DNA from: Chthonomonadales bacterium
Lineage (GTDB): Bacteria; Armatimonadota; Chthonomonadetes; Chthonomonadales; Chthonomonadaceae
NCBI GenBank assembly: GCA_038217285.1
Contig: JBBQPO010000036.1
Span: 1-30,543 of the forward strand
Reading direction: 5' to 3'
Length of the DNA: 30,543 bases
Shown here: positions 170 through 30,295 of the stretch, in pieces
How positions within the stretch are numbered: position 1 is the stretch's first letter
Layout: each line of letters opens with the position of its first letter
Made by a program: the position numbers and the translations under genes
Notes under the pieces: generated by a model
Database searches by the model: none
Seen by the model: only the letters and a program-made list of their open reading frames with translations
Told to the model about the DNA's origin: nothing

Positions 170-667
170 ATGATGAAGAAAGTCGCTAAACCTATATACA
201 TTCCACTTGGGCAGAATTTTCTTGCCGTTACGTTTCTCTTTGCTGCCTGTGCTAAGTGGATACAGTTAGGCGATTTTGTCGGTACATTAACCGCTTCAGG
301 ATTAGTCCCTTTGTCGCTGGCTCCCTTGCTCGCCATGCTAATCGTAGTGTTGGAGTTGTTTGCCGGGATAGGATTGCTTATACGCTCCTTGCGCGTGCAA
401 GCCTTAACTATTCTTCTCGTACTTCTTCCTCTCTTTTTGTTCTATTCGATCTGGAGACAGGTTCAGCATATAGAAGTACCTTGCAACTGCTTCGGCGCCA
501 TATTCAAAATCTCTCCCATGCAATCGATCCTATTTAATATCGGTTTACTGGGTCTAACGGTTTTGCTATTGAAGTCGCAGCGCCACATCCCTATAGACGG
601 GAAACCTGACCAGGGCAATTCGGAGCCTACGCTTGCTGATACGATCCCTGAATCTCAAAAAATGTAG
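170..667 (+). CDS. MauE/DoxX-family redox-associated membrane protein
   Basis: Four hydrophobic segments with F..A...K, 'VVLELFAGIGLL', 'PCNCFG' (MauE-type CGCFG motif) and 'SILFN'. Start placed at ATG 170 rather than TTG 92. Confidence 0.8.
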   Translation: MMKKVAKPIYIPLGQNFLAVTFLFAACAKWIQLGDFVGTLTASGLVPLSLAPLLAMLIVVLELFAGIGLLIRSLRVQALTILLVLLPLFLFYSIWRQVQHIEVPCNCFGAIFKISPMQSILFNIGLLGLTVLLLKSQRHIPIDGKPDQGNSEPTLADTIPESQKM

Positions 668-792: not shown

Positions 793-1632
793 GTGAAAAA
801 ATATACTGTACTACCTGCTGCAATTTCCGTCTGTCTTGCCATGGCGATGTTGGCAGTCTATAGCAATCAATCCCGCTCGCCAAGGATCGAACCCCAGCCG
901 ACTTCTGCACCTATGACAACGCAAGTTGCCGTAATAAATCGTTTCTCGTTCGAGCCGTTGGGAGAGGCCGATGCCAATCTGGAGATCGCGAAACGCTTCA
1001 AAGTCGTGCTGCATACCAAACTGTCCAAACACGAGTACACGCAGCTGATGCAGTCTTTCAGCGCTTTGCTGACCGTCTTTTATAAGCACGACTTTCCGGC
1101 GTTCAAACAGGCGGTCATAGAGCGGCATGGAACGCCTTCGGCAGTTTGGTCGGCAGGCGTCGCATCATTAGGGATATTCCACGAGCCTGATCACCTGCCG
1201 GGGTCAGCGAAATCCCTCTTTAATCTATCGCAACCTTGGCCTCCGAAAGACAACTGGATAACGATCCAAGCATGGTGGGCTGCGCGTTACGATCAAGGGG
1301 GGGTGTGGAAAGGGGTCCAGATGGCCGACGCGCAGATTGAAATCTTAGAGCAGACAGGTGAACCGTCCCGTGCCGACCAGGACGCATTCGCCGCCAAAGT
1401 CGCGAAAGATGCGCCGATCCGTTTGTTTCAAGACAATCATTTCTTTGCTCCGGAACAAGGCAAGGCAAAATACGCCGTCGTCTACTTTGTGGCCGAACAT
1501 CAGGGAGGTGATCCCATATTCCCGCTTTTTCTCTGGTTTAGATGGGATAAGGCGGTAGACAACTGGATTTTGGATAAGGCCGCTCAGTCTTACTCTGCAG
1601 ATAGAAGCAGCCACTGTGATCTCATATTGTGA
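793..1632 (+). CDS. Exported hypothetical protein, paralog of 4922-5719
   Basis: GTG 793 follows GGGAGAGGG and gives MKKYTVLPAAISVCLAMAMLAVY (signal or anchor). Aligns by eye with 4922-5719 (HDF.AFK, WW..RY..GGVWK, KAKYA.VY, RWDKAVDNWILD, HCDL). Confidence 0.8.
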   Translation: MKKYTVLPAAISVCLAMAMLAVYSNQSRSPRIEPQPTSAPMTTQVAVINRFSFEPLGEADANLEIAKRFKVVLHTKLSKHEYTQLMQSFSALLTVFYKHDFPAFKQAVIERHGTPSAVWSAGVASLGIFHEPDHLPGSAKSLFNLSQPWPPKDNWITIQAWWAARYDQGGVWKGVQMADAQIEILEQTGEPSRADQDAFAAKVAKDAPIRLFQDNHFFAPEQGKAKYAVVYFVAEHQGGDPIFPLFLWFRWDKAVDNWILDKAAQSYSADRSSHCDLIL

Positions 1633-1664: not shown

Positions 1665-2732
1665 ATGCCAGTACCAGCAAAGCTGACCCTGCCTTTAGCT
1701 ATTATGCTAACCGCTCCTTTCGCAATCGCGGCCTTTCTCGCTGCCACCAGCTTCCACCAGAAACAGGTTCCCGTGGGCGTTCGCAGGAATCTATGGCAGG
1801 ACGGCGTCCTCGCGCGTGGTGAGAGCCGCCGGCACCAAACGGTGCTGTACAATACTACCGATCATCCAGTACACATTGCACACTTCGTCGTTACCCCCGG
1901 TGCTACGTTAGCATTTGAAAAACGTGATATTCCTGCGCACGGAGAGGTGAGCGTCTTTTTCGGTGCCAAGCCGGACAGCAAAGGTAAGAACTGGCTGTGT
2001 GGTTCAGACATCTATCTGGACGGCTACCTGGACCCGATTACCCTGAAAGCTTACGGAAGTATTATTGACCTGGCTCCAGCGGTCGTTGACGCTGGAGAGA
2101 TATACCTCGCGAAGGAAAAACTCCTCTCGTTTCCCTTGCAGTCTCGTAACGGCAACGCTTTGCGTGTATATCGAGCGGTCTACGATGCAAAGCGTCTTGA
2201 GGTTAAAGTAGCCGCTGGTAAGTTGGGGAGCGAGGCGCAAATACGCGTATTGCCGATAGATACTCCAGGGAAATTCGCAGCGACGGTGACGCTCACAACG
2301 GACGATAAGTTGTTTCCCGAAGTCACGACGCAAATTGTTGGACGATGCCTGCCGCATGTTGTCGCGAGTCCCGATATACTCTCGCTGGGTGTGTTCTCCA
2401 GTCTAGAACAGGCCGAAGCGACGATCTCGCTTCGGTCACCATACGGCAAACCATTCACCGTTCGTCGTGTTACTATCGTGCCGGCGGAAGCGTTGCAAGT
2501 CATCGGCCCACCGCATCCTGTGGCTGACGGCTATGCGCTGCGTGTCGCTTTGAAGAACGGTACAGCAGGGATATCGCTCGACGCCAGAGTATTCATCGAG
2601 ATTGTGGTAGACGGCAGTCGGAAGCCAGAGACTGTGAACATTCCCGTCTATGGCCTCTATCTGCCGCTTCAAAAGGAGGCGATCCGAGCTCCAGCAACCC
2701 TGTCCTTCGGCGCATCTCCCAATAACCCATAA
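1665..2732 (+). CDS. DUF1573-like multi-Ig-domain exported protein
   Basis: N-terminal hydrophobic segment. 'LYNTTDHPVHIAHF...IPAHGEVSV' resembles the DUF1573 pattern, followed by beta-rich repeats ('GKFAATVTLTTDD', 'SPDILSLG'). Confidence 0.6.
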   Translation: MPVPAKLTLPLAIMLTAPFAIAAFLAATSFHQKQVPVGVRRNLWQDGVLARGESRRHQTVLYNTTDHPVHIAHFVVTPGATLAFEKRDIPAHGEVSVFFGAKPDSKGKNWLCGSDIYLDGYLDPITLKAYGSIIDLAPAVVDAGEIYLAKEKLLSFPLQSRNGNALRVYRAVYDAKRLEVKVAAGKLGSEAQIRVLPIDTPGKFAATVTLTTDDKLFPEVTTQIVGRCLPHVVASPDILSLGVFSSLEQAEATISLRSPYGKPFTVRRVTIVPAEALQVIGPPHPVADGYALRVALKNGTAGISLDARVFIEIVVDGSRKPETVNIPVYGLYLPLQKEAIRAPATLSFGASPNNP

Positions 2733-2764: not shown

Positions 2765-3592
2765 ATGCAGCGAAACGTCAATCGAAGGAGAGTATACGTC
2801 GGCTTTACACTTATCGAGGTGCTCGTCGTCATTGCGGTGATTGCGATCCTTGCGGGGCTGATATTCCCCATGTTCGCCAGCGCACGCGGCAAGGCGCGGG
2901 AAGCAACCTGTCTCTCCAATCAGAAGCAGATACTGCAAGCATTGACGCTGTACACAGGCGACTATGATGAGCATATCTTTCCATCCCAGTCGCTGCCGCC
3001 AATCAACGGAGGCAATGAAATCGCCGAAACGCCCTATGAGACGTTCCTTGTTCCCTATCTAAGAAGTTATGCGGTGTATGCCTGCCCGGCGGACAGTGTG
3101 CTGCGCGTGGACGACCTGCTCTGGGATGGCAGTTTCCGCAACAAACTGCTGAAGCGTTCCTATGCCGTCTCTTCAAGCCTTGCCACACAGCACAGTATGC
3201 TCGACCCCAACGCCGGCATCGTCACCTATGCCGGTGTGGCGCTGTCCGGTATTCACGAGCCAGCCAACACGATCGGTCTCTCAGAAAACTGGGGAGCTCA
3301 ACAGGGAGCGAAGGCTGCGGGAAGCAATAATGTCATCGGTTCTCAGCAGGGTGCCTATATCTATGCCTGTGAAACCTGGGCACTCCCCGGTCGCAATATT
3401 CCACCGCATAACGCTGACGACCTGTTTCCTCCCTGCGCCGACTACTACACCGATCCCATGTACATCCCAGCGCGGGGGCATCAGAAAGGAGGCATCTATG
3501 GCTTCCTGGACGGTCATGTCAAACTCCTCTCCTGGTCGCAAGCAAGGGCCGGAGATTTCTGGTTATTTAAGCGCAGTAAACCCAATCTTTAA
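2765..3592 (+). CDS. Prepilin-type N-terminal cleavage/methylation protein with H-X9-DG C-terminal motif (DUF1559-like)
   Basis: G|FTLIEVLVVIAVIAILAGLIFPMFASARGKAREATCLSNQKQ, Y.CP.D, and H-QKGGIYGFL-DGHVK. Confidence 0.92.
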   Translation: MQRNVNRRRVYVGFTLIEVLVVIAVIAILAGLIFPMFASARGKAREATCLSNQKQILQALTLYTGDYDEHIFPSQSLPPINGGNEIAETPYETFLVPYLRSYAVYACPADSVLRVDDLLWDGSFRNKLLKRSYAVSSSLATQHSMLDPNAGIVTYAGVALSGIHEPANTIGLSENWGAQQGAKAAGSNNVIGSQQGAYIYACETWALPGRNIPPHNADDLFPPCADYYTDPMYIPARGHQKGGIYGFLDGHVKLLSWSQARAGDFWLFKRSKPNL

Positions 3593-3657: not shown

Positions 3658-3666
3658 AAGGAGGTG
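3658..3666 (+). promoter_or_regulatory. Near-perfect Shine-Dalgarno for the Cys-rich peptide gene
   Basis: AAGGAGGTG ends 6 nt before ATG 3673. Confidence 0.8.
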
Positions 3667-3672
3667 AACAAG

Positions 3673-3897
3673 ATGACAATTTCCAAACGGAGCCGAATGC
3701 TAGGTGGTCTCGCCGCGTTCTGGACAGTGATGGGGGTGGCGGCGGCCACCTATTCCTGGGCAGCGGTGTCTAGTCAGCACTGTCGGGCTGATTGCAGCGG
3801 CGGATCCTGTAGTATCAACTGCAACAATCCGTCGTTCCCGATGTGTGGCTGTGGTTCTGACGGCGTACCGCACTGCGTATGCCAGCCGGGCCCATAA
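3673..3897 (+). CDS. Small secreted cysteine-rich peptide (74 aa; about 44-aa mature part with 8 Cys)
   Basis: Strong RBS. Sec-like signal MTISKRSRMLGGLAAFWTVMGVAAATYSWA, then AVSSQHCRADCSGGSCSINCNNPSFPMCGCGSDGVPHCVCQPGP. Confidence 0.85.
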   Translation: MTISKRSRMLGGLAAFWTVMGVAAATYSWAAVSSQHCRADCSGGSCSINCNNPSFPMCGCGSDGVPHCVCQPGP

Positions 3898-4039
3898 CTG
3901 TAGCCATACTGGCTCACAGCGACTACGGTGAAATAATCTACTGTATCCGCACGAATGTGCAACAGCGGATCGGGGAGCGCCTCCGATGTAAGCGTTCCCT
4001 ATCCGTCTTTAAAAGACGCGCCGCACCTGCTAAATATAA

Positions 4040-4909
4040 ATGCTTTCTCGCTTCCGACAAATCACCCATATACGACTATGGCTGCCAGTCTTGGCGGTAG
4101 GTGTCATTCTCCTGATGCTGGCCTTGGCGCTGCGAAAGTATCAGGGTGGGTCTCACACGCGCCACTGTCTTTCCAACCTCCACCAGCTTGGGCAAAGTCT
4201 GGCTCTCTACGCACAAGATTACGACCAGTGCTGGCCTGCTATCACTCACAGTCCTGCGATCCGCGGTGGGATCCTCTCCGGGACCGAAACGCCCACCGTT
4301 CCATATACATTTCAGCTCGAACCCTATATACATGACGAATCGCTCTATGCCTGTCCGGAGGACAATGTGCCGCGCAAAGAAGGGGAGCTATGGGATGGGC
4401 GCTATAAAGGAAAGCTTTTGAAGCGGTCCTATGCGCTGACAGGCCCCATCGTCACCCAGCAGGCCGCTGGTGCTGCCGGCCAAGATAAGAGTACCAGTGC
4501 CTTTGAGTATGTGGCCTATCAACAAAAGAAATACGACCGCAACACAGGCATCGCAGGACGCTCATTCGCCAGTGCAGACAATCCCGCCCAAACGATCGCT
4601 CTGGTGGAGAATTGGGGCTACCGCAACAGTGTGCTGGATGGTGAACTAAGTAATGCTGTCCTGGGATCTAACTGGAAGGATGTCCTCTTTGGCTGTGATA
4701 CCGCCTCTCTGCCCGGACGCCGTATTCCAGCGGAAAACGAGGTAGATCGGTTCGCGCCCTGCACATCGGTTTATGATGACCAGCATAACATCCCCGCGCA
4801 GGGACATGCAGATGTCGGAAACTATCTCATGGCGGACGGGCACGTCGAGTCGCTGCAATGGACGCAGGCGCGTGAAGCAGATTTTCAGCGATTCAAGCTT
4901 CATAAGTGA
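4040..4909 (+). CDS. H-X9-DG C-terminal motif protein (DUF1559-like) lacking the prepilin cleavage site; paralog of 2765-3592
   Basis: TM segment, then CLSNLHQLGQSLALYAQDYD, LYACPED, LWDG..K.KLLKRSYA, ENWG, and H-ADVGNYLMA-DGHVE. Confidence 0.88.
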   Translation: MLSRFRQITHIRLWLPVLAVGVILLMLALALRKYQGGSHTRHCLSNLHQLGQSLALYAQDYDQCWPAITHSPAIRGGILSGTETPTVPYTFQLEPYIHDESLYACPEDNVPRKEGELWDGRYKGKLLKRSYALTGPIVTQQAAGAAGQDKSTSAFEYVAYQQKKYDRNTGIAGRSFASADNPAQTIALVENWGYRNSVLDGELSNAVLGSNWKDVLFGCDTASLPGRRIPAENEVDRFAPCTSVYDDQHNIPAQGHADVGNYLMADGHVESLQWTQAREADFQRFKLHK

Positions 4910-4921
4910 GGAGAACAGTCC

Positions 4922-5719
4922 ATGTATCGAAACCCTCTGAGACAGAACAGCCAGGCTGTTTTTATTGTCAGCCTGCTGTGTGCGCTGGGTTTTGCACAAA
5001 GCACGGCGGGCCAACACTTGGCTCCGAAGCCTCTGATTCCATTGGGAACACCAGCGCAGAACCGAGTATTCATCAATCGCCTGAAAACCGTTTCCAAAGT
5101 TTCCCTGACCCCGCATGAGCAGGCCCGGTTGAAGCAGACGCTCTCCGAAGTTCTGACCCTGTATACCACACATGATTTTGACGCTTTCAAGCGATTCATG
5201 ACCTCTCGCAAAGGTGTACCAGAGGCGCAGTGGGTGAAAGGCATCCGCACGGTTCCCATCGTGCGGGATCGGGAAAAGCAACCCGCACCCGCCCGCAATC
5301 TGATCGCGCGCCTTCACTCCTGGCCTGCCGTGAGTGACTGGGACACCCTCCACGTTTGGTGGGTGGGAAGATACGCTGCAGGCGGCGTCTGGAAAAGCGC
5401 AGATGTGACAAGCGCTTTTTTACAAGTCTATGAGCGAGCGGAAGAGCCGGACGAAGACGAAGCCCGCATGATCGCCCCTAGAGCGTTTTCCAATCCGAGC
5501 AAGAGCATGATGTTTCAAATTAATCACTTCTTTCCATCGGCCACCACCAAGGCGAAATACGCGGCGGTTTACGTTGTAGCGCAGCCTCAAGGCAGCGATC
5601 CGGTTTTCCCCCGACTTATCTGGCTGCGCTGGGATAAGGCTGTGGATAATTGGATTTTAGACCGGGGGGCGCAACCTTACACGGGTGAACGCAGTGCGCA
5701 CTGTGACCTCCTGTTTTAA
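4922..5719 (+). CDS. Exported hypothetical protein, paralog of 793-1632
   Basis: GAGGAG RBS and signal-like AVFIVSLLCALGFAQSTA. Shares blocks with 793-1632, including RWDKAVDNWILD and terminal HCDLLF. Confidence 0.82.
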   Translation: MYRNPLRQNSQAVFIVSLLCALGFAQSTAGQHLAPKPLIPLGTPAQNRVFINRLKTVSKVSLTPHEQARLKQTLSEVLTLYTTHDFDAFKRFMTSRKGVPEAQWVKGIRTVPIVRDREKQPAPARNLIARLHSWPAVSDWDTLHVWWVGRYAAGGVWKSADVTSAFLQVYERAEEPDEDEARMIAPRAFSNPSKSMMFQINHFFPSATTKAKYAAVYVVAQPQGSDPVFPRLIWLRWDKAVDNWILDRGAQPYTGERSAHCDLLF

Positions 5720-5760: not shown

Positions 5761-7233
<1,473 letters not shown>

Positions 7234-7259
7234 CGTCCATTACTCCTACAGGTCGGCTG

Positions 7260-10200
7260 TCAGCCTTTGGTGATCGTTTCGTCCAGATTGAGCAGGACAC
7301 TGGCGACGGTCGTCCAGGCGGCCAGATCCGTGGTGTCCAGCGAAGCGTCCCGCGCCGATTCGCCGATGGCGAGCAGTTGCTTTGCGCCGGGCGGGTCGCG
7401 GCGGAAGACCACCGCCTGCCGGTTGAACAGCCCGAGCATGGTTTCGATCTCGGCGGCCCTCGGTTTGCGCCCCATCGCCAGTCGATAGGCGTAGGCGATA
7501 TGCTGTTCCGGAGTCGTGCCTCCCTCTTTCATGATGCGTTCGGCGAGCTTACGGGACGCCTCCACATAGGTCGGGTCGTTCATCAGTGTGAGGGCCTGGA
7601 GAGGCGTGTTGGTGACAGAGCGACGCACCAGACAGAACTCGCGCTCCGGCGCATCGAACGCCTGCAGGGAGGGCGGCGGACAGGTACGCTTCCAGAAGGT
7701 GTACATGCCGCGCCGATAGAGGTTTTCGCCGTGATCCTGCACATAGGTCTGCGCAGAGAAGCTGCCGCCGAAGGCGAGCTCTTCCCACAGTCCGGCGGGC
7801 TGATAAGGGTGTACGGACGGCCCGCCGACCTTCTCCACCAGCAGTCCACTGACCGCCAGCGCCTGATCGCGGACGAACTCGCCCTGGAGTCGGAACCGCG
7901 CTCCCCGTGCCAGCAGCCGGTTCTCCGGGTCGCGCTCTTTCAGGGCGGGCGTCACTTTGGAAGACTGTCGGTAGGTCGCCGAGGTGACGATCAGCCGCAG
8001 CAGCGCCTTCGTATCCCAGCCAGTACGAATGAATTCGGTGGCCAGCCAGTCGAAAAGCTCCGGATGGGAGGGCCGTTCGCCCTGCGTTCCGAAATCCTCC
8101 GCCGTCTTGACGAGTCCCGTCCCAAACAGCATCTGCCAGGTGCGATTGACGGCGACGCGGGCGGTCAGCGGGTGCGAGGGATCGACCAGCCAGCGCGCCA
8201 TGGTCAGACGATTCGCCGGGCCGGGCGGCAGCGGCGGCAGGAAGTCCGGCGTACCGGCGAATACCTTCTCGCCGGGCTTGTCGTACTGCCCGCGTTGCAG
8301 AATGAAGGTGTCACGCGGCTTGTCCATCTCCTGCATCACCATGGTGGTCGGAATGGATTTATCGATGACATCCCGCGCGCTCTGCGCGGCAGCAAGATCG
8401 GCGCTGAGGCGGCGATACGGCTCGTCCTGGGCGCTGAGATAGTAGGTTGCCAGCCGGGTGCGCTGTTCCGGTGTGCGCTTCTCTTCAGAGGTAGCGAGAA
8501 CCTGGCGCAGGGTGTCGAAATCCGCGATCTGCTGCACCTCGTCCGCGCTGACCTGACGCCGGTAGATACGAATCGCCTCGATCATTCCCTTGAAGGGGGC
8601 CGCAATACTGCGCCTGCCAATACGCAGCGGAACCGTTGTTTGAATCGAGCCAGTCAGAGAGTCGTGGGTCATGTCCAGCGGGGCAGGTTTGCCGTTGACA
8701 TAGATCGTGATGCCCTTCGCCTTGCTGGAGCCATCGTAGGTAACGAAGAGATGCGTCCATTTGTTGGCTTCGAGGACCGGCTTCGTGTTGACGCGGATCG
8801 CGTTCTTGTCCCAGGCATGAATCAGGTGTACATACACCTGACCACCGCTGATATAGAGGTCGAAACCGCGAAAGTCGGCACTGTCGTCCATGCGGGAGAG
8901 CACCGTCATCGCCTCCGTAGAGGCGGGATTTACCCATGCGCCATAAGAAAATTTATCGCTGCGCTCGAACCCGATTTTGGTCCCGAGGTCGGCGGTGGTA
9001 GCGCCATCGAGCGCCAACACCGGCCCGAACCGACCCGGCGACCAGGCTGGCTTGCCCGTGAGGGCGACGACAGGGATCGTGCCGGAGGTGTCGTGAAGAT
9101 CTGCGCCCTGTCCCTCGTTCAGACGATAGTACGCCGCCAGTCCATTCGTCACGGGAGCCATCGCGTCCGGAGTGACTGTCATCGCCTTCATCCAGGCGGC
9201 AAGCGCGGGCTGCGCTTCGGCAGTCCGGGTCTTCAGGGCCTGTTGTGCGGCTGCGAGTTTCCCCTCCGCCGCTTCCAGTTGCGCCTTCTGAGCGGCGTCC
9301 GGCGCTTTCAAAAAGGGAACGGCATTGCCTGCCGAGCCATCCAGCCCCTGCTCCGATACGTTGTGGAAGAGCGCGAAGAAACGGTAGTAGTCCTTCTGGG
9401 TGACCGGATCGTACTTGTGGTCGTGGCACTGCGCGCAGCGCATGGTCAGGCCCATAAAGGCGGTCGCGGTCGTGTCGATGCGATCAACGATATAGGCGGT
9501 GGCATACTCTTCAGGAATCGCGCCGCCCTCGAAGTTGATGGGATGATTACGGTTGAACCCGGAGGCGATGCGCTGATCGAGCGTGGGGTTCGGCAGAAGA
9601 TCGCCCGCCAACTGCTGCACGACGAACTGGTCGTAGGAGAGGTTTTTGTTGTACGCCTCGATGACCCATTCGCGCCACCGCCACATATCGCGCTGGCTGT
9701 CGATATGAAAGCCGTGCGTGTCGGCATAGCGGGCGAGATCGAGCCAGGAGACCGCCATGCGCTCGCCATAATGGGGACTTGCCAGCAGCCGATCCACAAC
9801 CCTGTCATAGGCGTCCTTACCGGCGTCATGGACGAAGGCGTCTACTTCCGCCGGGGTTGGCGGCAGTCCGGTCAGGTCGAAACTCAGGCGGCGAATCAGG
9901 ATACCGCGCTCCGCTTCCGGAGAGGGTTTCAGGCCCTCCTTCTCCAGACGCGCCAGGATAAAACGGTCGAGTGGATTTTTCGCCCAGGCTGTATTCCGAA
10001 CCGTCGGTACGGCAGGACGCTTCGGCGTGACAAATGCCCAGTGGGCATCGTATTTGCCTCCCTGCATGATCCACTGCTTCAGGACGACGATCTGCGCGGG
10101 CGTCAGTTTTTTGCCGGTGCTGACCGGCGGCATGTGCAGCGCCCCACCTGCCAGCACCCGCTGCATGAGGGCGCTAGCGCCGGGGTTCCCCGCGACGATC

Positions 10201-10481
10201 GCGTGTCCTCCGCTGCTGAGCGCCTTGACGGCCCCCTCCGCCGTATCGAGACGCAGGCCAGCTTGCCGCTGATTCGGATCGAACCCGTGGCATTTGTAGC
10301 AGTTCTCCGACAGAATCGGGCGCACATCGCGATCATAATCCACTCGCATCGGGACGCTGCCTGCCTTCACCCTCTGACCAGGCTTTGCACCGGGCGGCGC
10401 AGCCTGCGCACTGCCTCCCGCCAATGCTAAACCCAACCATACCCAACCGAACGTCCGAAAGAGTGCCTGGGAACCTTGCAT
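7260..10481 (-). CDS. Planctomycete cytochrome c (PSCyt1)/DUF1549/LamG/DUF1553 protein
   Basis: RDVRPILSENCYKCHG, HWAF, YGERMA.SWLDLARYADT, CAQCHDHKYDP, a LamG-like insert (WTHLFVTYDG), DFGTQGERPSHPELFDWLA and TNTPLQAL.LMND. Confidence 0.93.
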   Translation of the reverse strand: MQGSQALFRTFGWVWLGLALAGGSAQAAPPGAKPGQRVKAGSVPMRVDYDRDVRPILSENCYKCHGFDPNQRQAGLRLDTAEGAVKALSSGGHAIVAGNPGASALMQRVLAGGALHMPPVSTGKKLTPAQIVVLKQWIMQGGKYDAHWAFVTPKRPAVPTVRNTAWAKNPLDRFILARLEKEGLKPSPEAERGILIRRLSFDLTGLPPTPAEVDAFVHDAGKDAYDRVVDRLLASPHYGERMAVSWLDLARYADTHGFHIDSQRDMWRWREWVIEAYNKNLSYDQFVVQQLAGDLLPNPTLDQRIASGFNRNHPINFEGGAIPEEYATAYIVDRIDTTATAFMGLTMRCAQCHDHKYDPVTQKDYYRFFALFHNVSEQGLDGSAGNAVPFLKAPDAAQKAQLEAAEGKLAAAQQALKTRTAEAQPALAAWMKAMTVTPDAMAPVTNGLAAYYRLNEGQGADLHDTSGTIPVVALTGKPAWSPGRFGPVLALDGATTADLGTKIGFERSDKFSYGAWVNPASTEAMTVLSRMDDSADFRGFDLYISGGQVYVHLIHAWDKNAIRVNTKPVLEANKWTHLFVTYDGSSKAKGITIYVNGKPAPLDMTHDSLTGSIQTTVPLRIGRRSIAAPFKGMIEAIRIYRRQVSADEVQQIADFDTLRQVLATSEEKRTPEQRTRLATYYLSAQDEPYRRLSADLAAAQSARDVIDKSIPTTMVMQEMDKPRDTFILQRGQYDKPGEKVFAGTPDFLPPLPPGPANRLTMARWLVDPSHPLTARVAVNRTWQMLFGTGLVKTAEDFGTQGERPSHPELFDWLATEFIRTGWDTKALLRLIVTSATYRQSSKVTPALKERDPENRLLARGARFRLQGEFVRDQALAVSGLLVEKVGGPSVHPYQPAGLWEELAFGGSFSAQTYVQDHGENLYRRGMYTFWKRTCPPPSLQAFDAPEREFCLVRRSVTNTPLQALTLMNDPTYVEASRKLAERIMKEGGTTPEQHIAYAYRLAMGRKPRAAEIETMLGLFNRQAVVFRRDPPGAKQLLAIGESARDASLDTTDLAAWTTVASVLLNLDETITKG

Positions 10482-13417: not shown

Positions 13418-14875
13418 GTGAATTGGAATTCCCTCCGCGTCACCCGCGTCTCCCGCACCGCAGCGAGCCGCCGGGCAAGCAATGGACTGGCAACATCGGA
13501 TACAGTTCTGCGCCCCCTGCACTCGGATCGCGCTGCAAGTCGCCTGGTGCGCCCTGCACTCTCTATCGCCACCTGCGCTCTTCTGGGCCTGGCGGCCACC
13601 ACCGGCAACGCTCAGGACGCTCCGAAACCGGAAGCTACCAAGGCCCCTGCCGTAGCCGCAGCCGCGCCGGCAGCGCCGCCTCCGCCCGCGCCGGGCACGG
13701 TCACCGTCTCCGGCCTGGTCGACATCTACTACGGCATCAATGTCCGCGCTCCACGCGGCCCGGGCGACACGCCCTACGCGGCGACCCTCACGACCGGCAA
13801 TCCCGGCGAGGTCATCGGCGTAGACAATGCCTTCCATGCGTTCGACATCAACGACCGCGACCCCAGCTTCAGCCTGGGCGAGCTCAACATCACCCGGACG
13901 CCCGGCAAAGGGTTCCCGCTGGGCCTCACCCTCACGCTGACCGCTGGCGACACGGCGCGAATCGTGCATGCCACCGAACCCGGCGGCACCAGCAGCTGGC
14001 AGTTCGTACAGCAGGCCTACCTGACCTATACGCCGCACATTGCAGGCCGCGATGTCACCATCGACTTCGGTAAGTTCGTGACCCCGTTCGGTTACGAAGT
14101 CATCGAGAGCAGCAGCAACGACCAGTATACGCGCAGTTTTGGGTTCACCTACGCCATTCCGTTCTACCATGCAGGCGTGCGGGCCGCGTTCCCGATCAAT
14201 CCGAAGCTCACCCTGACCCTGTTCGGCGTAAATGGCTGGAACAACGTCGCTGACGATAACAACGCGAAGTCCTTCATCGCTCAGGCGACGTGGAAACCAA
14301 ACGCCAAACTCACCGCCAACCTCACCTATATGGGTGGCGCGGAAGGCACCGGCGCGTTCGGCAACTACCTGCCCGCAGGACCTGCCTACCCGATCGGCCT
14401 TCCGACGACGACGATAAACGGCGGCACCTTCATCAACACCAAAGGCGCCGGCAACGTCACCATCGACCTGGTGGAGTTTCAGCCGACCTATCAGATCAGC
14501 CCCAAGCTGAAGATCGCCGCCGTGCTAGACTATGCGCGTGCGGCCGGAGACATATACGGCGTGAAGGAGTCGGGAACCTGGCTGTCCGGGGCGGCATACG
14601 GCCGCTATCAGCTCACGAACCACTTCGCGCTGGCGGGACGTCTGGAGCAGTTTGAGGACATTCCCGGCACCGGCGGCGTCGGCCTCCGCCTGGGCGGTCC
14701 CTACACCAAACTCCAGAGCGCGACCCTCACGGCGGAATACACCAGCTTCAAGGGTCAGTTGATCTCGCGACTGGAGTTCCGGCACGACTCGAGCAACAAC
14801 GCGGTCTTCGGAGCTGGCAGCGGCACCGTCAAGGACCAGGATACCTATACGCTGGGCGAAGTTTTCAAGTTCTAA
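13418..14875 (+). CDS. Outer-membrane beta-barrel porin (BBP2/OmpL-like, former DUF1597)
   Basis: AAGGAGG RBS, signal peptide, GKFVTPFGYEVIES...N..YTRS..F....PFYHAGVRA, NGWNN..DDNN.KS, and C-terminal Phe (VFKF). Confidence 0.85.
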   Translation: MNWNSLRVTRVSRTAASRRASNGLATSDTVLRPLHSDRAASRLVRPALSIATCALLGLAATTGNAQDAPKPEATKAPAVAAAAPAAPPPPAPGTVTVSGLVDIYYGINVRAPRGPGDTPYAATLTTGNPGEVIGVDNAFHAFDINDRDPSFSLGELNITRTPGKGFPLGLTLTLTAGDTARIVHATEPGGTSSWQFVQQAYLTYTPHIAGRDVTIDFGKFVTPFGYEVIESSSNDQYTRSFGFTYAIPFYHAGVRAAFPINPKLTLTLFGVNGWNNVADDNNAKSFIAQATWKPNAKLTANLTYMGGAEGTGAFGNYLPAGPAYPIGLPTTTINGGTFINTKGAGNVTIDLVEFQPTYQISPKLKIAAVLDYARAAGDIYGVKESGTWLSGAAYGRYQLTNHFALAGRLEQFEDIPGTGGVGLRLGGPYTKLQSATLTAEYTSFKGQLISRLEFRHDSSNNAVFGAGSGTVKDQDTYTLGEVFKF

Positions 14876-14888
14876 CCCGGCACGTCTC

Positions 14889-14921
14889 GTAGGAGGGCAG
14901 CCAACCTTACTGCCCTCTTAC
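14889..14921 (+). terminator. Hairpin after the porin gene (terminator, processing site or attenuator)
   Basis: GTAGGAGGGCAG-N9-CTGCCCTCTTAC. It lacks a clean U-tract. Confidence 0.45.
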
Positions 14922-14988
14922 CTCTTATCCGCGAGGCCATACGCCTCCTACAGATTTCCGGCGTCTATCGTCGCAGCTCTTTTTTCTC

Positions 14989-15004
14989 GCAACGCTGTTG
15001 TTGC
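14989..15004 (+). promoter_or_regulatory. Second copy of the GCAAC-N6-GTTGC element, upstream of amtB
   Basis: GCAACGCTGTTGTTGC is 15/16 identical to 13172-13187. Confidence 0.6.
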
Positions 15005-15157
15005 ACGGAAACTCCCGTTTCCTTCACTCCATCTAGTTTATCCGGTCGTTTCCAGCGTGGGAATGCGGTCGGCACCACGCGGCAGGCAACGTCCTGCCCA
15101 CTCTAAGCCTGAACGCCAGCCCTATAAGTTCAGGAAACCTTGAGGAGGGGAACTACT

Positions 15158-16789
15158 GTGAGTTCTGAGAAATTGACACGATTTCAGAAGATGAGCCGCC
15201 TGGCCAAGCGTCTTCAAGACCCGGAATGGCGTCGTTTCGGGTACACGCTGCTCGTTGGAAAACTGGGGGCCGTCGCTATTCTGTTGATGGCTTTCGCGCT
15301 CTACACGGCCTTTACAGGCAGCGCGGCGCACGCGCAGGCCGCCGCCGCGCCTGCGCTGAAAGCCGAAGGCATTGTCAACCCGATCAACACGGTCTGGGTT
15401 CTGCTGGCAGCCTTCCTGGTTTTCGCCATGCAGGTCGGCTTCACCATGCTGGAAGCGGGCTTCTGCCGCTCCCGTGAAACCGTCAACGTTCTGATGGAAT
15501 GTATCGTCGATACCTGTCTCTGCGGCGTCCTGTTCTTCGCCTGGGGCTACGCCTTCATGTTCAGCCATGGCAACGGTTTTATCGGTTACCACTGGTTCTT
15601 CCTGAAGGATGCGCCGGAGACCTACGAGGCGACCGGCGTCGCGCTGATGGCGCACTGGCTGTTCCAGTTCGCCTTTGCCGATACCTGCTCGACCATCACC
15701 TCCGGAGCCATGATCGGCCGCACCGGCTGGATCGGTGACCTGCTCTATAGCTTCGGCGTTTCCGGCTTCATCTATCCGATCATCGGCCACTGGGCCTGGG
15801 GACCGGATGGCTTCCTGGCGACCATGGGCAGCCCCGCCGCAGCAGGCGCGGCGGCTAACTTCCTTCCGACTCTCGGAAACTCTTTCCACGATTTCGCGGG
15901 TTCGACCGTTGTCCATACGATCGGAGGCATGGTCGCCCTGGCGGGAGCCATCGTGCTCGGCCCTCGGCTTGGGCGTAAGTTCAAGAGGGACGGCGGCGGC
16001 GCAATGCTTCCGCACGACCTTGTTATCGCGGCTTCCGGAGGCCTCATCCTCTGGTTCGGCTGGTACGGCTTCAACCCGGGCAGCACGCTGTCCGCGATGG
16101 ACTTCCAGGGGATCGGTCGTGTCGCCGCCAACACCACCCTTGCCGCTTGCGCGGGCGGACTGCTGGCGATGATCTGGGCATATCCGCAGACGAAAAAGTG
16201 GGACGTGGGCTTCACGATCAACGGCTTCCTGGCAGGGCTTGTCGCCATCACCTGTCCGTGTTACTGGGTCTCGCCAGCGGGCTCCCTCGCTATCGGCGCG
16301 GTCGCTGGCGTCCTGGTCGTTATGGGCGTCAATCTCATGGAGTGGCTCCGCATCGACGATCCGATCGGCGCGGTTCCGGTTCACGGCTTCTGCGGCATCT
16401 GGGGAACCTTGTCGCTGGGCCTCTTCGCCGCGAATCAGTATACGGCACCCATCAGCACCGGGGCAGACCCCGCGGCTACGAAGCTGGCAGGTCTGTTCTA
16501 TGGAGGCGGCCTCAAGCTGTTCGAAGCTCAGTTCATCGGCAGCGTCATCATTACGGTATCGACCTTTGCTGTCGCGATGGCGATGATGTATGCGCTCAAA
16601 CAGATGCGTCTCCTGCGCGTCTCGAAAGAGGGCGAACTGGAAGGGCTGGATATCCACGAGCACGGTATTCCGGCCTACCCCGAATACGTGCTTACCCCTG
16701 CGGCTACGCCGCATGGCGCCGTGAACATGATGACTTCCAGTCACGCTCCGTCAGGTGTCGTGGTCAGTGAGAACCTTCCCCCAGCCTGA
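15158..16789 (+). CDS. amtB: Ammonium transporter
   Basis: LVFAMQVGFTMLEAG, FQFAFA, HWAW, DFAGSTVVH, WFGWYGFNPGS and DDPIGAVPVHG (twin His intact). GTG start after GAGGAGGGG. Confidence 0.96.
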   Translation: MSSEKLTRFQKMSRLAKRLQDPEWRRFGYTLLVGKLGAVAILLMAFALYTAFTGSAAHAQAAAAPALKAEGIVNPINTVWVLLAAFLVFAMQVGFTMLEAGFCRSRETVNVLMECIVDTCLCGVLFFAWGYAFMFSHGNGFIGYHWFFLKDAPETYEATGVALMAHWLFQFAFADTCSTITSGAMIGRTGWIGDLLYSFGVSGFIYPIIGHWAWGPDGFLATMGSPAAAGAAANFLPTLGNSFHDFAGSTVVHTIGGMVALAGAIVLGPRLGRKFKRDGGGAMLPHDLVIAASGGLILWFGWYGFNPGSTLSAMDFQGIGRVAANTTLAACAGGLLAMIWAYPQTKKWDVGFTINGFLAGLVAITCPCYWVSPAGSLAIGAVAGVLVVMGVNLMEWLRIDDPIGAVPVHGFCGIWGTLSLGLFAANQYTAPISTGADPAATKLAGLFYGGGLKLFEAQFIGSVIITVSTFAVAMAMMYALKQMRLLRVSKEGELEGLDIHEHGIPAYPEYVLTPAATPHGAVNMMTSSHAPSGVVVSENLPPA

Positions 16790-20860: not shown

Positions 20861-21625
20861 ATGAAATTCAATACGGGTCTTAGACTGTCAGTTGTGCTAG
20901 GAACTCTCGCGCTTGCTGGACCGGTTCTTCTCGGCAGTGCGGCTTCGGCGCAAACTCTGATCCACCGCTATACCTTCAACGGGGACGCTTCCGACTCGGT
21001 CGGCAGTGCCAACGGCACGCTCAACAGTGGTGCGGTCGCCAATGGGGGTAACCTGACACTAGATGGGGTTGCCGCCAATGTAAGCTTCACCCAGCATATC
21101 GTTCCCACCTCCAGCGCCTATTCTGTCGCATTTTTCGCCCGACAGAGCGCCCTGGAGGGGCACTATATCGAATGGATTTCGCAGGGAATTTCCGTTGGGC
21201 CAGGGTTCTACGTCGGCTATGATCCCGGCGGCCAGATCCGTGCTACCGATTCGTGGCCCGCGACAGGGAAAACCTTTACGGCCAATGGAGCCTTTCAGCA
21301 TATCGCTCTTGTGACCACCGGCACAGCGTCCAGCCTGTATGTCAACGGGACGCTTGCGGCCTCGCTCGCCAGTGGGCTAAATACGACTGCTGGCGGCGAC
21401 GATACACGCTTTGGTACGCAGTTCAGCGGAATCTCAGAATTTTTCCAGGGCGACATACGGGATATGCGAATTTATACAGGCGCGCTTTCCGCCCAGCAGG
21501 TAGCCGTGCTTGCCTCCACGCCGGAACCCGGCATGATGGCTCTCCTCAGCGCCCTGAGCATGACAGGAGCCGGGTTTGCCATGCGCCGCAAACGTAACTG
21601 TCGGACATCGGTCAATTCTGGCTGA
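20861..21625 (+). CDS. LamG-like jellyroll PEP-CTERM protein
   Basis: Signal peptide, LIHRYTFNGDASDSVG, FQHIALV...LYVNG, FQGDIRDMRIY.GALS.QQV, and TPEPG-TM-RRKR. Confidence 0.9.
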   Translation: MKFNTGLRLSVVLGTLALAGPVLLGSAASAQTLIHRYTFNGDASDSVGSANGTLNSGAVANGGNLTLDGVAANVSFTQHIVPTSSAYSVAFFARQSALEGHYIEWISQGISVGPGFYVGYDPGGQIRATDSWPATGKTFTANGAFQHIALVTTGTASSLYVNGTLAASLASGLNTTAGGDDTRFGTQFSGISEFFQGDIRDMRIYTGALSAQQVAVLASTPEPGMMALLSALSMTGAGFAMRRKRNCRTSVNSG

Positions 21626-27781: not shown

Positions 27782-27841
27782 ACCTGAAGAGTAATGTTCG
27801 TTAGGGCGCGTTCGCGCCTGAATTTAAACCTGAATAGAATT

Positions 27842-30295
27842 ATGAGTAACCGAAACATCCTTAATCGCATAGACCCATTGCGCTCGTCCCGGTGTCCTAC
27901 CGGTGTTGAAAGTCGTCTGAAACGCAGTTCCGTGCTGTTGCTCTCCGGCCTGTTGCCGACGGGCCTGCTGATCTATGCCGCCACGTTGCCCACGGTAAGC
28001 GCCGCCGTCCCGCCGAAGTCGAAGCAGGCTTCTGCAAACGCGATGGCTTCTGCGGCCGGAGGCTTCGAAACGGAAGTCGCGCCTCTGATGCGCAAGTACT
28101 GTCTTAGCTGTCACAGCGGACCGAACCCGTCCGGCGGCGTCAATGCGGATAAGGACAAAACCACCGCATCTGTCATTAAAAACCGCAGCACCTGGGAAAA
28201 CATCTCACGCAATATCAGCGACAGCCACATGCCGCCGGCAAGTGCGCCACAGCCGACGGTCGCCGAGCGCGACCGAATCACACACTGGGTGGAGGGAACG
28301 TTTACTAAAGCCGACTGCGCCCTCCACGATCCGGGCCGCATTACGCTGCGCCGTCTCAACCGCGAAGAGTACAACAACACGGTGCGAGATCTGTTCGGGA
28401 TGGATATTCGGCCCGCCGACAGTTTCCCCTCCGACGATGTCGGCTACGGGTTCGACAACATCGGAGACGTGCTTTCGCTGTCGCCGCTGTTGATGGAGAA
28501 GTATCTCAACGCCGCCGAAAAGGTCGTACAGACCGCGATTTTGACGCCGGAAGAGGCCAACAAGCCCATTCGCATTCCTGCGGCCACGATGCAGCACAGC
28601 CTGCAAGGATCGGCCTACAACGGCAATGGGTTTCTGCTCAGCACGAATGGGGATGTGCACACCGAGTACGAGGTTCCCCGAGAGGGCGAATATACGATCC
28701 GCGTCAACGCCGCCCAGCAGCAGGCCGGACCCGAGAACGCCAAGATGGTGCTGCATGTCGATGACCAGGCGGTCTTTACCTTCGATGTCGCGGCGCAGGA
28801 GCGTAATCCGCGTTCCTACGAACTGCCGATGCGGCTGAAGGTCGGCAAACATCGCTTTGCGATGGAGTTCACCAACGACTTCTATGACGTTAAACAGCCC
28901 CAGGGCAAGCAGGACCGCAATCTGGTCGTCAACTATCTCGAACTGGTCGGACCGCCCGGGATGCCGAAGGATCTGCCCGCGTCCCACCGGCGCATCCTCT
29001 TCTGCCAGCCGTCGGCGACTCTCAGTCAGGACGCGGCTGCCCGCAAGATCCTGACGGCCTTCGCGACGAAAGCCTATCGCCGCCCGGTCACCACGCCGGA
29101 AGTGGATCGCCTGCTGACATACGTACATCTGGCGGAGAAGCAGGGCGAGAGCTTCGAGGGCGGGATTCGCGTGGCGGTCGAAGCCGTTATGGTCAATCCG
29201 AACTTCCTGTTCCATGTGGAGCTCGACCCGAAGCCGAACGAGAAATCGAGCGCCCGGTATCTGACCGACTATGAGCTGGCGGCGCGCCTCTCCTACTTCC
29301 TGTGGAGCAGCACCCCCGACGACGAGCTTACCACGCTCGCCGCAAAAGGTCAACTGCAGAACAGCAAGATGCTGGAAGCGCAGGTAAAGCGCATGCTCAA
29401 AGACCCGAAGGCGCGGGCCCTGGGCCAGAACTTCGCGGGCCAGTGGCTGCAACTGCGGAACCTTTCGCAGGTCCGCCCCGATACCGGCCGCTTCCCGGAC
29501 TGGAACGACAAACTCCGGGTCGCGATGAAGACCGAAACCGAGATGTTCTTCAACGCCATTGTGAGCGAAGATCGAAACCTGCTGGACTTTATCGACGCGA
29601 AATATACCTTCCTGAATGAGCCGCTGGCGAAACACTACGGTATTGCCGGTGTGACCGGCGACAACTTCCGCCGCGTCGTGCTCGAAGGCGATCAGCGCGG
29701 CGGCCTGCTGACCCAGGCGAGTATTCTGACCGTGACCTCGAACCCGACCCGGACTTCGCCGGTCAAACGCGGTAAGTGGGTGCTGGACAATCTGCTCGGC
29801 ACGCCGCCGCCGCCGGCTCCGCCGAACGTGCCGAAACTGGCCGACGACAACCATGCTATGCTGGTAGGTACCCTGCGGCAGCGCATGGAGAAACATCGCA
29901 GCAACCCGGCCTGCGCGTCGTGCCACGCCCGTATGGACCCCCTGGGGTTCGGGCTGGAAAACTTCGATGCGACCGGTGGCTGGCGCACGAAAGACGGCGA
30001 TGCAGCCGTGGACTCGTCCGGTACGCTGCCGGGTAATGTCTCCTTCAACGGCCCCGCACAGTTGAAGGCGATCCTGAAAACCAAGAAGACCCTGTTCGTT
30101 CACTGCCTGACCGAAAAGATGATGACCTACGCCCTCGGGCGTGGCATCGAACACTACGACCGCTGTAATATCGATGCCATGGTAAAGACGGTAGCGCAGA
30201 ACGACTACAAGTTCTCGGCGCTGATAAATGCAATCGTGGAAAGTGAGCCCTTCCGCAAACGGCGAGGGGACGATGGAGGCTTAGCAACTCGATGA
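27842..30295 (+). CDS. Planctomycete-type cytochrome c protein (PSCyt1, DUF1587, CBM-like, DUF1595, DUF1592, DUF1588, DUF1585)
   Basis: CLSCH, LRRLNREEYNNTVRDL, GFDN, FTND...DRNL (CBM60-like), YELAARLSYFLWSSTPD, TSPVKRGKW and CASCH..MDPLGFGLENFD. Confidence 0.93.
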   Translation: MSNRNILNRIDPLRSSRCPTGVESRLKRSSVLLLSGLLPTGLLIYAATLPTVSAAVPPKSKQASANAMASAAGGFETEVAPLMRKYCLSCHSGPNPSGGVNADKDKTTASVIKNRSTWENISRNISDSHMPPASAPQPTVAERDRITHWVEGTFTKADCALHDPGRITLRRLNREEYNNTVRDLFGMDIRPADSFPSDDVGYGFDNIGDVLSLSPLLMEKYLNAAEKVVQTAILTPEEANKPIRIPAATMQHSLQGSAYNGNGFLLSTNGDVHTEYEVPREGEYTIRVNAAQQQAGPENAKMVLHVDDQAVFTFDVAAQERNPRSYELPMRLKVGKHRFAMEFTNDFYDVKQPQGKQDRNLVVNYLELVGPPGMPKDLPASHRRILFCQPSATLSQDAAARKILTAFATKAYRRPVTTPEVDRLLTYVHLAEKQGESFEGGIRVAVEAVMVNPNFLFHVELDPKPNEKSSARYLTDYELAARLSYFLWSSTPDDELTTLAAKGQLQNSKMLEAQVKRMLKDPKARALGQNFAGQWLQLRNLSQVRPDTGRFPDWNDKLRVAMKTETEMFFNAIVSEDRNLLDFIDAKYTFLNEPLAKHYGIAGVTGDNFRRVVLEGDQRGGLLTQASILTVTSNPTRTSPVKRGKWVLDNLLGTPPPPAPPNVPKLADDNHAMLVGTLRQRMEKHRSNPACASCHARMDPLGFGLENFDATGGWRTKDGDAAVDSSGTLPGNVSFNGPAQLKAILKTKKTLFVHCLTEKMMTYALGRGIEHYDRCNIDAMVKTVAQNDYKFSALINAIVESEPFRKRRGDDGGLATR

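Follow-up and report, generated by a model that had tools for sequence, protein, structure and literature searches.

Disulfide-rich miniproteins are known mostly from animals, plants and fungi and are missed by gene callers in bacteria; in one of their classes, the knottins, the inhibitor cystine knot has the connectivity C1-C4, C2-C5 and C3-C6. Bacteriocins and microcins are encoded together with cognate immunity genes, in loci where a patchy, modular peptide gene stands beside the gene for a dedicated membrane-anchored partner. A patchy distribution, tandem modules and a duplicated partner are features typical of such effector-immunity loci. Among the systems described in the literature, and as far as the accessible text of each paper goes, the bufferins of Caulobacter (bufABCD) are made from small, folded, Sec-exported and cysteine-rich precursors encoded in an operon with a DoxX/MauE-type gene (PMC11626156). 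In class I lasso peptide clusters, DoxX and thioredoxin proteins (SviE and SviF) accompany disulfide-bearing lasso peptides (PMC9266682), and DoxX is reported as dispensable in both the bufferin and the lasso systems (PMC11626156; PMC9266682). The bacterial cis-defensins, which are defined by a cysteine-stabilised helix with a beta-hairpin (PMC11561630), and actifensin (PMC6989792) are small and cysteine-rich, with a GXC motif and C-X3-C and C-X-C units. The formal gamma-core pattern is GXC-X3-9-C, and both positive charge and amphiphilicity belong to the definition of the motif (PMC9820530). Furthermore, a DUF1573 selenoprotein with a UGC motif has been tabulated (PMC9312934).

The miniprotein described here belongs to none of the families tested, yet is comparable to exported disulfide peptides already described, which have thiol helpers and cognate partners. 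Its gene lies in a window of 30,543 nucleotides (the whole stretch of DNA that was analysed) from a Chthonomonadales bacterium, within a cluster of seven plus-strand genes at the start of the contig, in the order mauE, orfA1, orfB, a prepilin-like DUF1559 gene, the miniprotein gene, a DUF1559-type gene and orfA2 (Table 1). A Sec-type, cysteine-rich small precursor next to a DoxX/MauE-type gene recalls the bufferins, but the window cassette contains neither an MNIO nor a DUF2063 gene, the cysteine pattern is another one, and a DUF1573 protein and a cognate membrane-anchored partner are encoded alongside the peptide. DoxX-type and CxxC thioredoxin-like helpers beside a disulfide-bearing peptide are shared with the lasso clusters, whereas a Sec signal and four disulfides are predicted here and no lasso cyclase, leader protease or ABC exporter was found in the seven homologous loci. 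Likewise, the small size, the cysteine content, the GXC motif and the C-X3-C and C-X-C units are those of the cis-defensins and actifensin, from which the miniprotein differs in having no predicted helix, a near-neutral charge and a dedicated partner gene. The patchy, modular peptide gene adjoining the gene for a dedicated membrane-anchored partner is also a feature of bacteriocin and microcin loci, but in our case the predicted partner has an extracytoplasmic, weakly NTF2-like domain of 230 aa that fits no known family, and the cassette includes DUF1573, prepilin-like and GT-C genes. Finally, a C-X-C...G...C hairpin is shared with the pacifastin, follistatin-N and EGF-like beta-hairpin modules, which appear in weak Foldseek rows with E-values above 2.9 and differ in the number and spacing of their cysteines; no sequence match to the peptide was found in the PDB.

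Table 1. Positions of the features in the cassette at the start of the window.
Feature	Position	Strand	Description
MauE/DoxX-family membrane protein	170..667	+	Candidate thiol-disulfide helper; syntenic in G013; ORF caller start at 92
OrfA1	793..1632	+	N-terminally anchored, no Pfam family; predicted miniprotein binder; ORF caller start at 712, GTG at 793 matches the G013 homologue
OrfB, membrane-anchored Ig-repeat protein of DUF1573 type	1665..2732	+	Cys motif lost; present in G037 and G029 homologues
Prepilin-like DUF1559-type protein	2765..3592	+	N-methylation motif; ORF caller start at 2735; 76% identical in G013
Shine-Dalgarno AAGGAGGTG	3658..3666	+	6 nt 5' of the ATG start
Miniprotein precursor	3673..3897	+	74 aa; putative Sec-type signal (residues 1-30) and 44-aa mature domain with 8 Cys, predicted all-beta
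Post-stop stem-loop without U-run	3898..3919	+	Possible mRNA-stabilising hairpin
DUF1559-type paralogue	4040..4909	+	C-terminus H-X9-DG; 67% identical in G013
OrfA2	4922..5719	+	OrfA1 paralogue, 41% identical; signal-like N-terminus, weak NTF2-like fold; many predicted interface residues kept

A preliminary description of this DNA had given the reading frame, the spacing of its eight cysteines, its two histidines (His36 and His67), a perfect Shine-Dalgarno sequence and a hairpin after the stop codon, all of which were found as described. The cysteines are residues 37, 41, 46, 50, 58, 60, 68 and 70, and their spacing (3-4-3-7-1-7-1) occurs once in the 6.2-Mb genome, against about 5e-6 occurrences expected by chance, and in none of 100 shuffles of the window. 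The signal peptide, proposed to end in S28-W29-A30 and to leave a mature part of 44 residues with a reduced average mass of 4370.9, was judged by hand from N-terminal features and homologues: three of the first ten residues are K or R, and the best 12-residue Kyte-Doolittle value of the hydrophobic stretch is 1.84. The hairpin has nine pairs, and the 50 nt 3' of the stop have a folding z-score of -3.0; the hairpin lacks a U-run and is absent from the list of terminator-like structures, and strong post-stop hairpins were found at three of the seven homologous loci. The Shine-Dalgarno sequence alone would suggest the high expression that had been claimed. An ORF caller that takes the first start would open the gene at ATG 3601 and give 98 aa. 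The 74-aa product was not found in a collection of 15 billion proteins, in which no entry of 40-130 aa has three 5-mers in common with it, whereas the product of the neighbouring gene at 4922-5719 is present there, which indicates that annotators miss the gene, as had been anticipated.

Homologues in six other genomes (G013, G037, G029, G106, G138 and G224, the window's own genome being G000) keep all eight cysteines; the seven loci span seven genomes, six genera and four families, and these genomes are kin and not independent tests. The sole strong homologue among 61 related genomes is the one in G013, which belongs to another genus (64%), and its cassette is syntenic with that of the window, orfA2 alone being missing. 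Between these two miniprotein genes, pN is 0.26 and pS is 0.79, the spacing is kept at all eight cysteines, and five of the eight cysteine codons differ synonymously. The miniprotein gene is a coding gene under purifying selection. The remaining five loci were reached by following OrfA, and the distribution is patchy (0/4 congeners). Six of the seven genes have a signal-like N-terminus and a strong Shine-Dalgarno sequence, which is of the AGGAGG type ahead of all six intact genes. The core of the G224 miniprotein is intact, but an in-frame stop stands in place of the signal, so this gene is probably broken or misassembled; the peptide without signal (L037:78-681) overlaps an upstream thioredoxin-like ORF in another frame, which may reflect a broken gene or an assembly error.

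The alignment of the core comprises 11 sequences, namely the seven loci, the free peptides P0012 and P0013, and the larger secreted proteins L075:1900-2433 and P0011 (177 and 246 aa), in which the eight-cysteine domain forms the C-terminus and for which no Pfam family was found. Conservation of the cysteines had been made the touchstone of the earlier reading, and all eight, together with two glycines (G44 and G64), are invariant in 11/11 cores, with S45 near-invariant. His67 is present in only four of the 11. The peptides of G037 and G029 each gain two cysteines, one ahead of the core and one in the long loop, a paired gain that suits a fifth disulfide and may be a single event. Among the six intact members, the net charge of the core is -1, 0, +2, 0, -1 and +1, the window's gene having -1, and the cores are rich in Ser/Thr, most of all in G037, G029 and G138 (9-14 S/T).

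The AlphaFold2 model of the peptide, built from an 11-row alignment, shows two hairpins made up of four beta strands and contains no helix (mean pLDDT 89). Fold searches with this model produced nothing significant. The peptide could be placed in no Pfam, NCBIfam, PDB or Atlas family, and no description of it came up in the openly accessible article texts that were searched. Three class assignments were considered and rejected: a CS-alpha-beta (cis-) defensin, given the four strands and the lack of a helix in the model; the gamma-core antimicrobial class, the sequence pattern of which is present while the charge is -1 to +2 and the pI of the mature miniprotein is 6.0; and a double-glycine, C39-processed peptide, since no C39 match was found among the scanned neighbours of the seven loci. 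The product is probably a Sec-exported miniprotein with four disulfides. The preliminary description holds in its reading of a real, exported and probably four-disulfide miniprotein central to the cluster; its defensin-like reading is not supported, and metal binding is unlikely.

MauE, around which a search for relatives had been proposed, is not the constant neighbour; it is found in two of the seven loci, whereas an orfA gene adjoins the miniprotein homologue in all seven genomes and is present in two copies in the window. The gap between the two genes is 39-90 bp in five loci and 1-2 kb in G000 and G013. In a sample of 401 genomes from the phylum, the OrfA profile matched six genomes and strong peptide matches came from the same six, a coincidence that is partly circular; a profile made from the first four peptides alone recovered two more real genes, both adjoining orfA. 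NTF2-like proteins have an alpha+beta cone fold; such a fold is weakly suggested for OrfA2 and, through this paralogue, for OrfA1. We found no Pfam family for OrfA, no significant NCBIfam or Foldseek match and no Atlas match of at least 0.9.

In the complex prediction, the score was 0.86 for the mature peptide with anchor-less OrfA1 and 0.02 for the best of three controls. Among reference pairs, 116 of 157 solved ones and 2 of 215 mismatched ones attained the mark used, which is roughly applicable here since custom alignments were used; with the same tool, 7 of 44 gene neighbours chosen blindly likewise passed. At least 79% of contacts are common to the runs, and the partner has a pLDDT of at least 82. 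No solved relative of the peptide or of OrfA was found that could explain a pass by a memorised structure. The predicted contacts involve precursor residues 42-48 and 62-70, that is, two hairpin turns with the invariant G44 and G64 and the near-invariant S45. OrfA2 keeps the interface residues W68, W110, R114, F161, Q162, R220, C224 and D225. Against binding, the interface columns of OrfA are conserved no more than average (0.55 versus 0.54). The prediction supports binding of the peptide by OrfA, and a place in this predicted partner interface accounts for the conserved G-S-C turn better than a gamma-core does. No OrfA was found in the genome that encodes L075, so the eight-cysteine domain can also occur without OrfA.

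The other neighbours vary. A candidate thiol-redox gene is adjacent in six of the seven loci, encoding MauE in two, a CxxC thioredoxin-like protein in two (one by a weak Pfam match, one by motif only) and a DUF1573 protein with a Cys motif in two, both of the latter in loci without MauE. Ig-repeat proteins of the DUF1573 type were counted in four loci in all, prepilin genes in four, GT-C genes (DUF2079 or Wzy_C) in five and GT2 genes in two, and several contigs end nearby. The OrfB of the window has no Pfam match, its homologues in G037 and G029 (25-28%) pass the PF07610 cut-off, and the OrfB profile matched a C39-DUF1573 protein at 98.5% over 287 columns. No prepilin cleavage motif was detected in the protein encoded at 4040-4909, nor in its counterpart in G013.

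The OrfB profile matched 37 of the 401 genomes, and of the 39 other matches we fetched 20, for the most part the strongest. A small gene on the same strand with a Shine-Dalgarno sequence, a signal and at least six cysteines was found at 11 of these 20 DUF1573-like loci, where the rate in G000 (20 in 6.21 Mb) would predict about 0.8; G000 is a different genome and hence a rough control. Across these loci each peptide type sorts with its own partner family. Exported peptides with 12-13 cysteines (L444:2591-2845 and L445:8193-8441) are accompanied by a 315-aa partner of no family, 63% identical between the two, and then by DUF2079 and prepilin genes. Five other peptides with 12-13 cysteines combine a Sec signal with a propeptide of the double-glycine type (L447:4880-5266, L449:9183-9575, L451:8925-9350, L458:4733-5182 and L459:8091-8516), and each precedes a member of a common partner family without Pfam match; a fusion of a C39 peptidase with DUF1573 follows in four of the five, the fifth being ended by the contig. 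Short exported multi-cysteine peptides lie beside related membrane-anchored proteins in L453, L455, L456 and L463, three of these proteins with HEAT repeats, and a peptide of the same type is encoded at L038:11909-12190. Three modules of cysteine peptide and partner stand in tandem in L039:19-7840, two of them with a nearly identical signal peptide, and the array ends in an O-antigen-ligase-like/transglycosylase fusion that is also found in L037:1609-3762. Prepilin DUF1559 genes occur in nine of the 20 loci. The cassette associated with DUF1573 is modular, and we take the peptide-OrfA pair to be one of its interchangeable modules.

The MauE of the window is the only one above the cut-off in the genome. 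The third-position GC content (GC3) of the six larger cluster genes is 0.51-0.63, with a genome median of 0.71 and a 10th percentile of 0.60, which is compatible with acquisition. Positions 1-141 of the window consist of a dispersed repeat that is about 141 bp long, contains an inverted portion and recurs in about a dozen other contigs, often at their ends; the contig breaks at this repeat and genes upstream of the cluster may therefore be unseen. The apparent TTG start of mauE at 92 falls within the repeat. Elsewhere in the window there are two planctomycete-type cytochrome c modules, DUF1549/DUF1553 with DUF1501 (5761-10481, minus strand) and DUF1585-1595 with CBM60 (27794-30295, plus strand), as well as a BBP2 beta-barrel porin gene upstream of an ammonium transporter (13418-16789) and a secreted protein with a Pfam LamG match (20861-21625), the tail of which we take to be PEP-CTERM-like.

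Our hypothesis is that the peptide leaves the cytoplasm by the Sec pathway, is cleaved behind Ala30 and, once outside, is oxidised to a compact miniprotein of two beta-hairpins with four disulfides. Oxidation would be assisted by a thiol-redox helper, presumably MauE in this genome and TlpA-like proteins or Cys-motif DUF1573 proteins elsewhere, or alternatively by a general VKOR. The folded peptide would then dock by its two glycine turns onto OrfA, its cognate membrane-anchored NTF2-like protein, which would capture it outside the cytoplasmic membrane, and the pair would act as a swappable module of a cassette associated with DUF1573, prepilin and glycosyltransferase genes. We favor the interpretation, with a probability of roughly one half, that the peptide is an effector and OrfA its immunity protein or receptor, because one type of cassette accommodates unrelated pairs in exchange for one another, the homologues are patchily distributed and the window has two copies of the partner gene. 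That the peptide is not cationic counts against an effector role, and an effector-immunity role does not account for the prepilin-like and GT-C genes.

These genes are the strength of the main rival explanation, a rather doubtful one, in which OrfA and the peptide form a heterodimer that serves as a structural or adhesive subunit of a surface assembly, together with pseudopilins and the Ig-repeat DUF1573 protein; the neighbouring GT-C enzymes might O-glycosylate the peptide or the pilins, with a lipid-linked sugar made by GT2. The recurrence of prepilin DUF1559 genes among both the peptide loci and the other DUF1573 loci, the GT-C and GT2 genes and the Ser/Thr-rich cores are in line with such an assembly, which the predicted binding of the peptide to OrfA fits equally well. 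However, there is no glycosyltransferase in the cassettes of the window and of G013, the DUF2079 gene of the window's genome being on another contig, DUF1559 paralogues are abundant in that genome (67 tblastn matches), and the swapping of unrelated peptide and partner families into the same cassette fits an effector better than a fixed structural part. The DUF2079 gene lies on a 2460-bp contig (G000:C449) ahead of a prepilin-like gene, an arrangement that recurs in other cassettes.

Since the model places the peptide on an NTF2-like domain, and such folds frequently have a pocket, the peptide could also act on an extracytoplasmic enzyme as a small inhibitor or a regulatory lid; this enzyme might be OrfA or, in the manner of pacifastin, a protease. 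We consider this improbable: the pacifastin-type inhibitors among the weak Foldseek rows (E-values of 5-8) are far from significant, and Trp, Gly and Pro make up most of the conserved columns of OrfA, among which no catalytic set is apparent. Chelation of metals in the envelope by free or modified cysteines, as in thioneins or bufferins, is suggested by the eight cysteines, the two CxC units, the Sec signal and a DoxX/MauE neighbour of the kind described for bufferin operons in the accessible text (PMC11626156). A bufferin-type function is nevertheless unlikely because the histidine at position 67 is so rarely kept and because no MNIO enzyme (PF05114) was matched in the 95%-complete genome, whereas the Caulobacter control was; furthermore, the extra cysteines were gained as a pair and no metal-resistance genes were seen in the seven loci, which makes chelation in general very improbable. 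Least credible is a membrane-active, defensin-like antimicrobial acting through a gamma-core, as its C-X3-C and C-X-C units and the G-[SD]-C-X3-C pattern, which is found in 11/11 cores and matches the formal one, are opposed by core charges of -1 to +2, in contrast to the positive, amphiphilic character in the definition of the motif (PMC9820530, accessible text) and by a model without the cysteine-stabilised helix that cis-defensins are said to need (PMC11561630, accessible text).

To return to the effector and its cognate binding protein, the pairs at the DUF1573-like loci may, more tentatively, belong to a widespread and unrecognised polymorphic bacterial system, in which Sec-exported disulfide miniproteins, each with a cognate membrane-anchored receptor or immunity protein, share a common cassette of DUF1573, thiol-redox, pseudopilin and GT-C genes for maturation and display. 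The window gene would then be one module, with a four-disulfide double-hairpin fold that has no solved relative, bound by a new family of NTF2-like receptors. A new 44-residue scaffold comes paired with a named, predicted binding partner. The cassette of peptide and partner also suggests a testable job for DUF1573 proteins and orphan MauE/DoxX genes, and this type of cassette points to several more families of peptides and partners.
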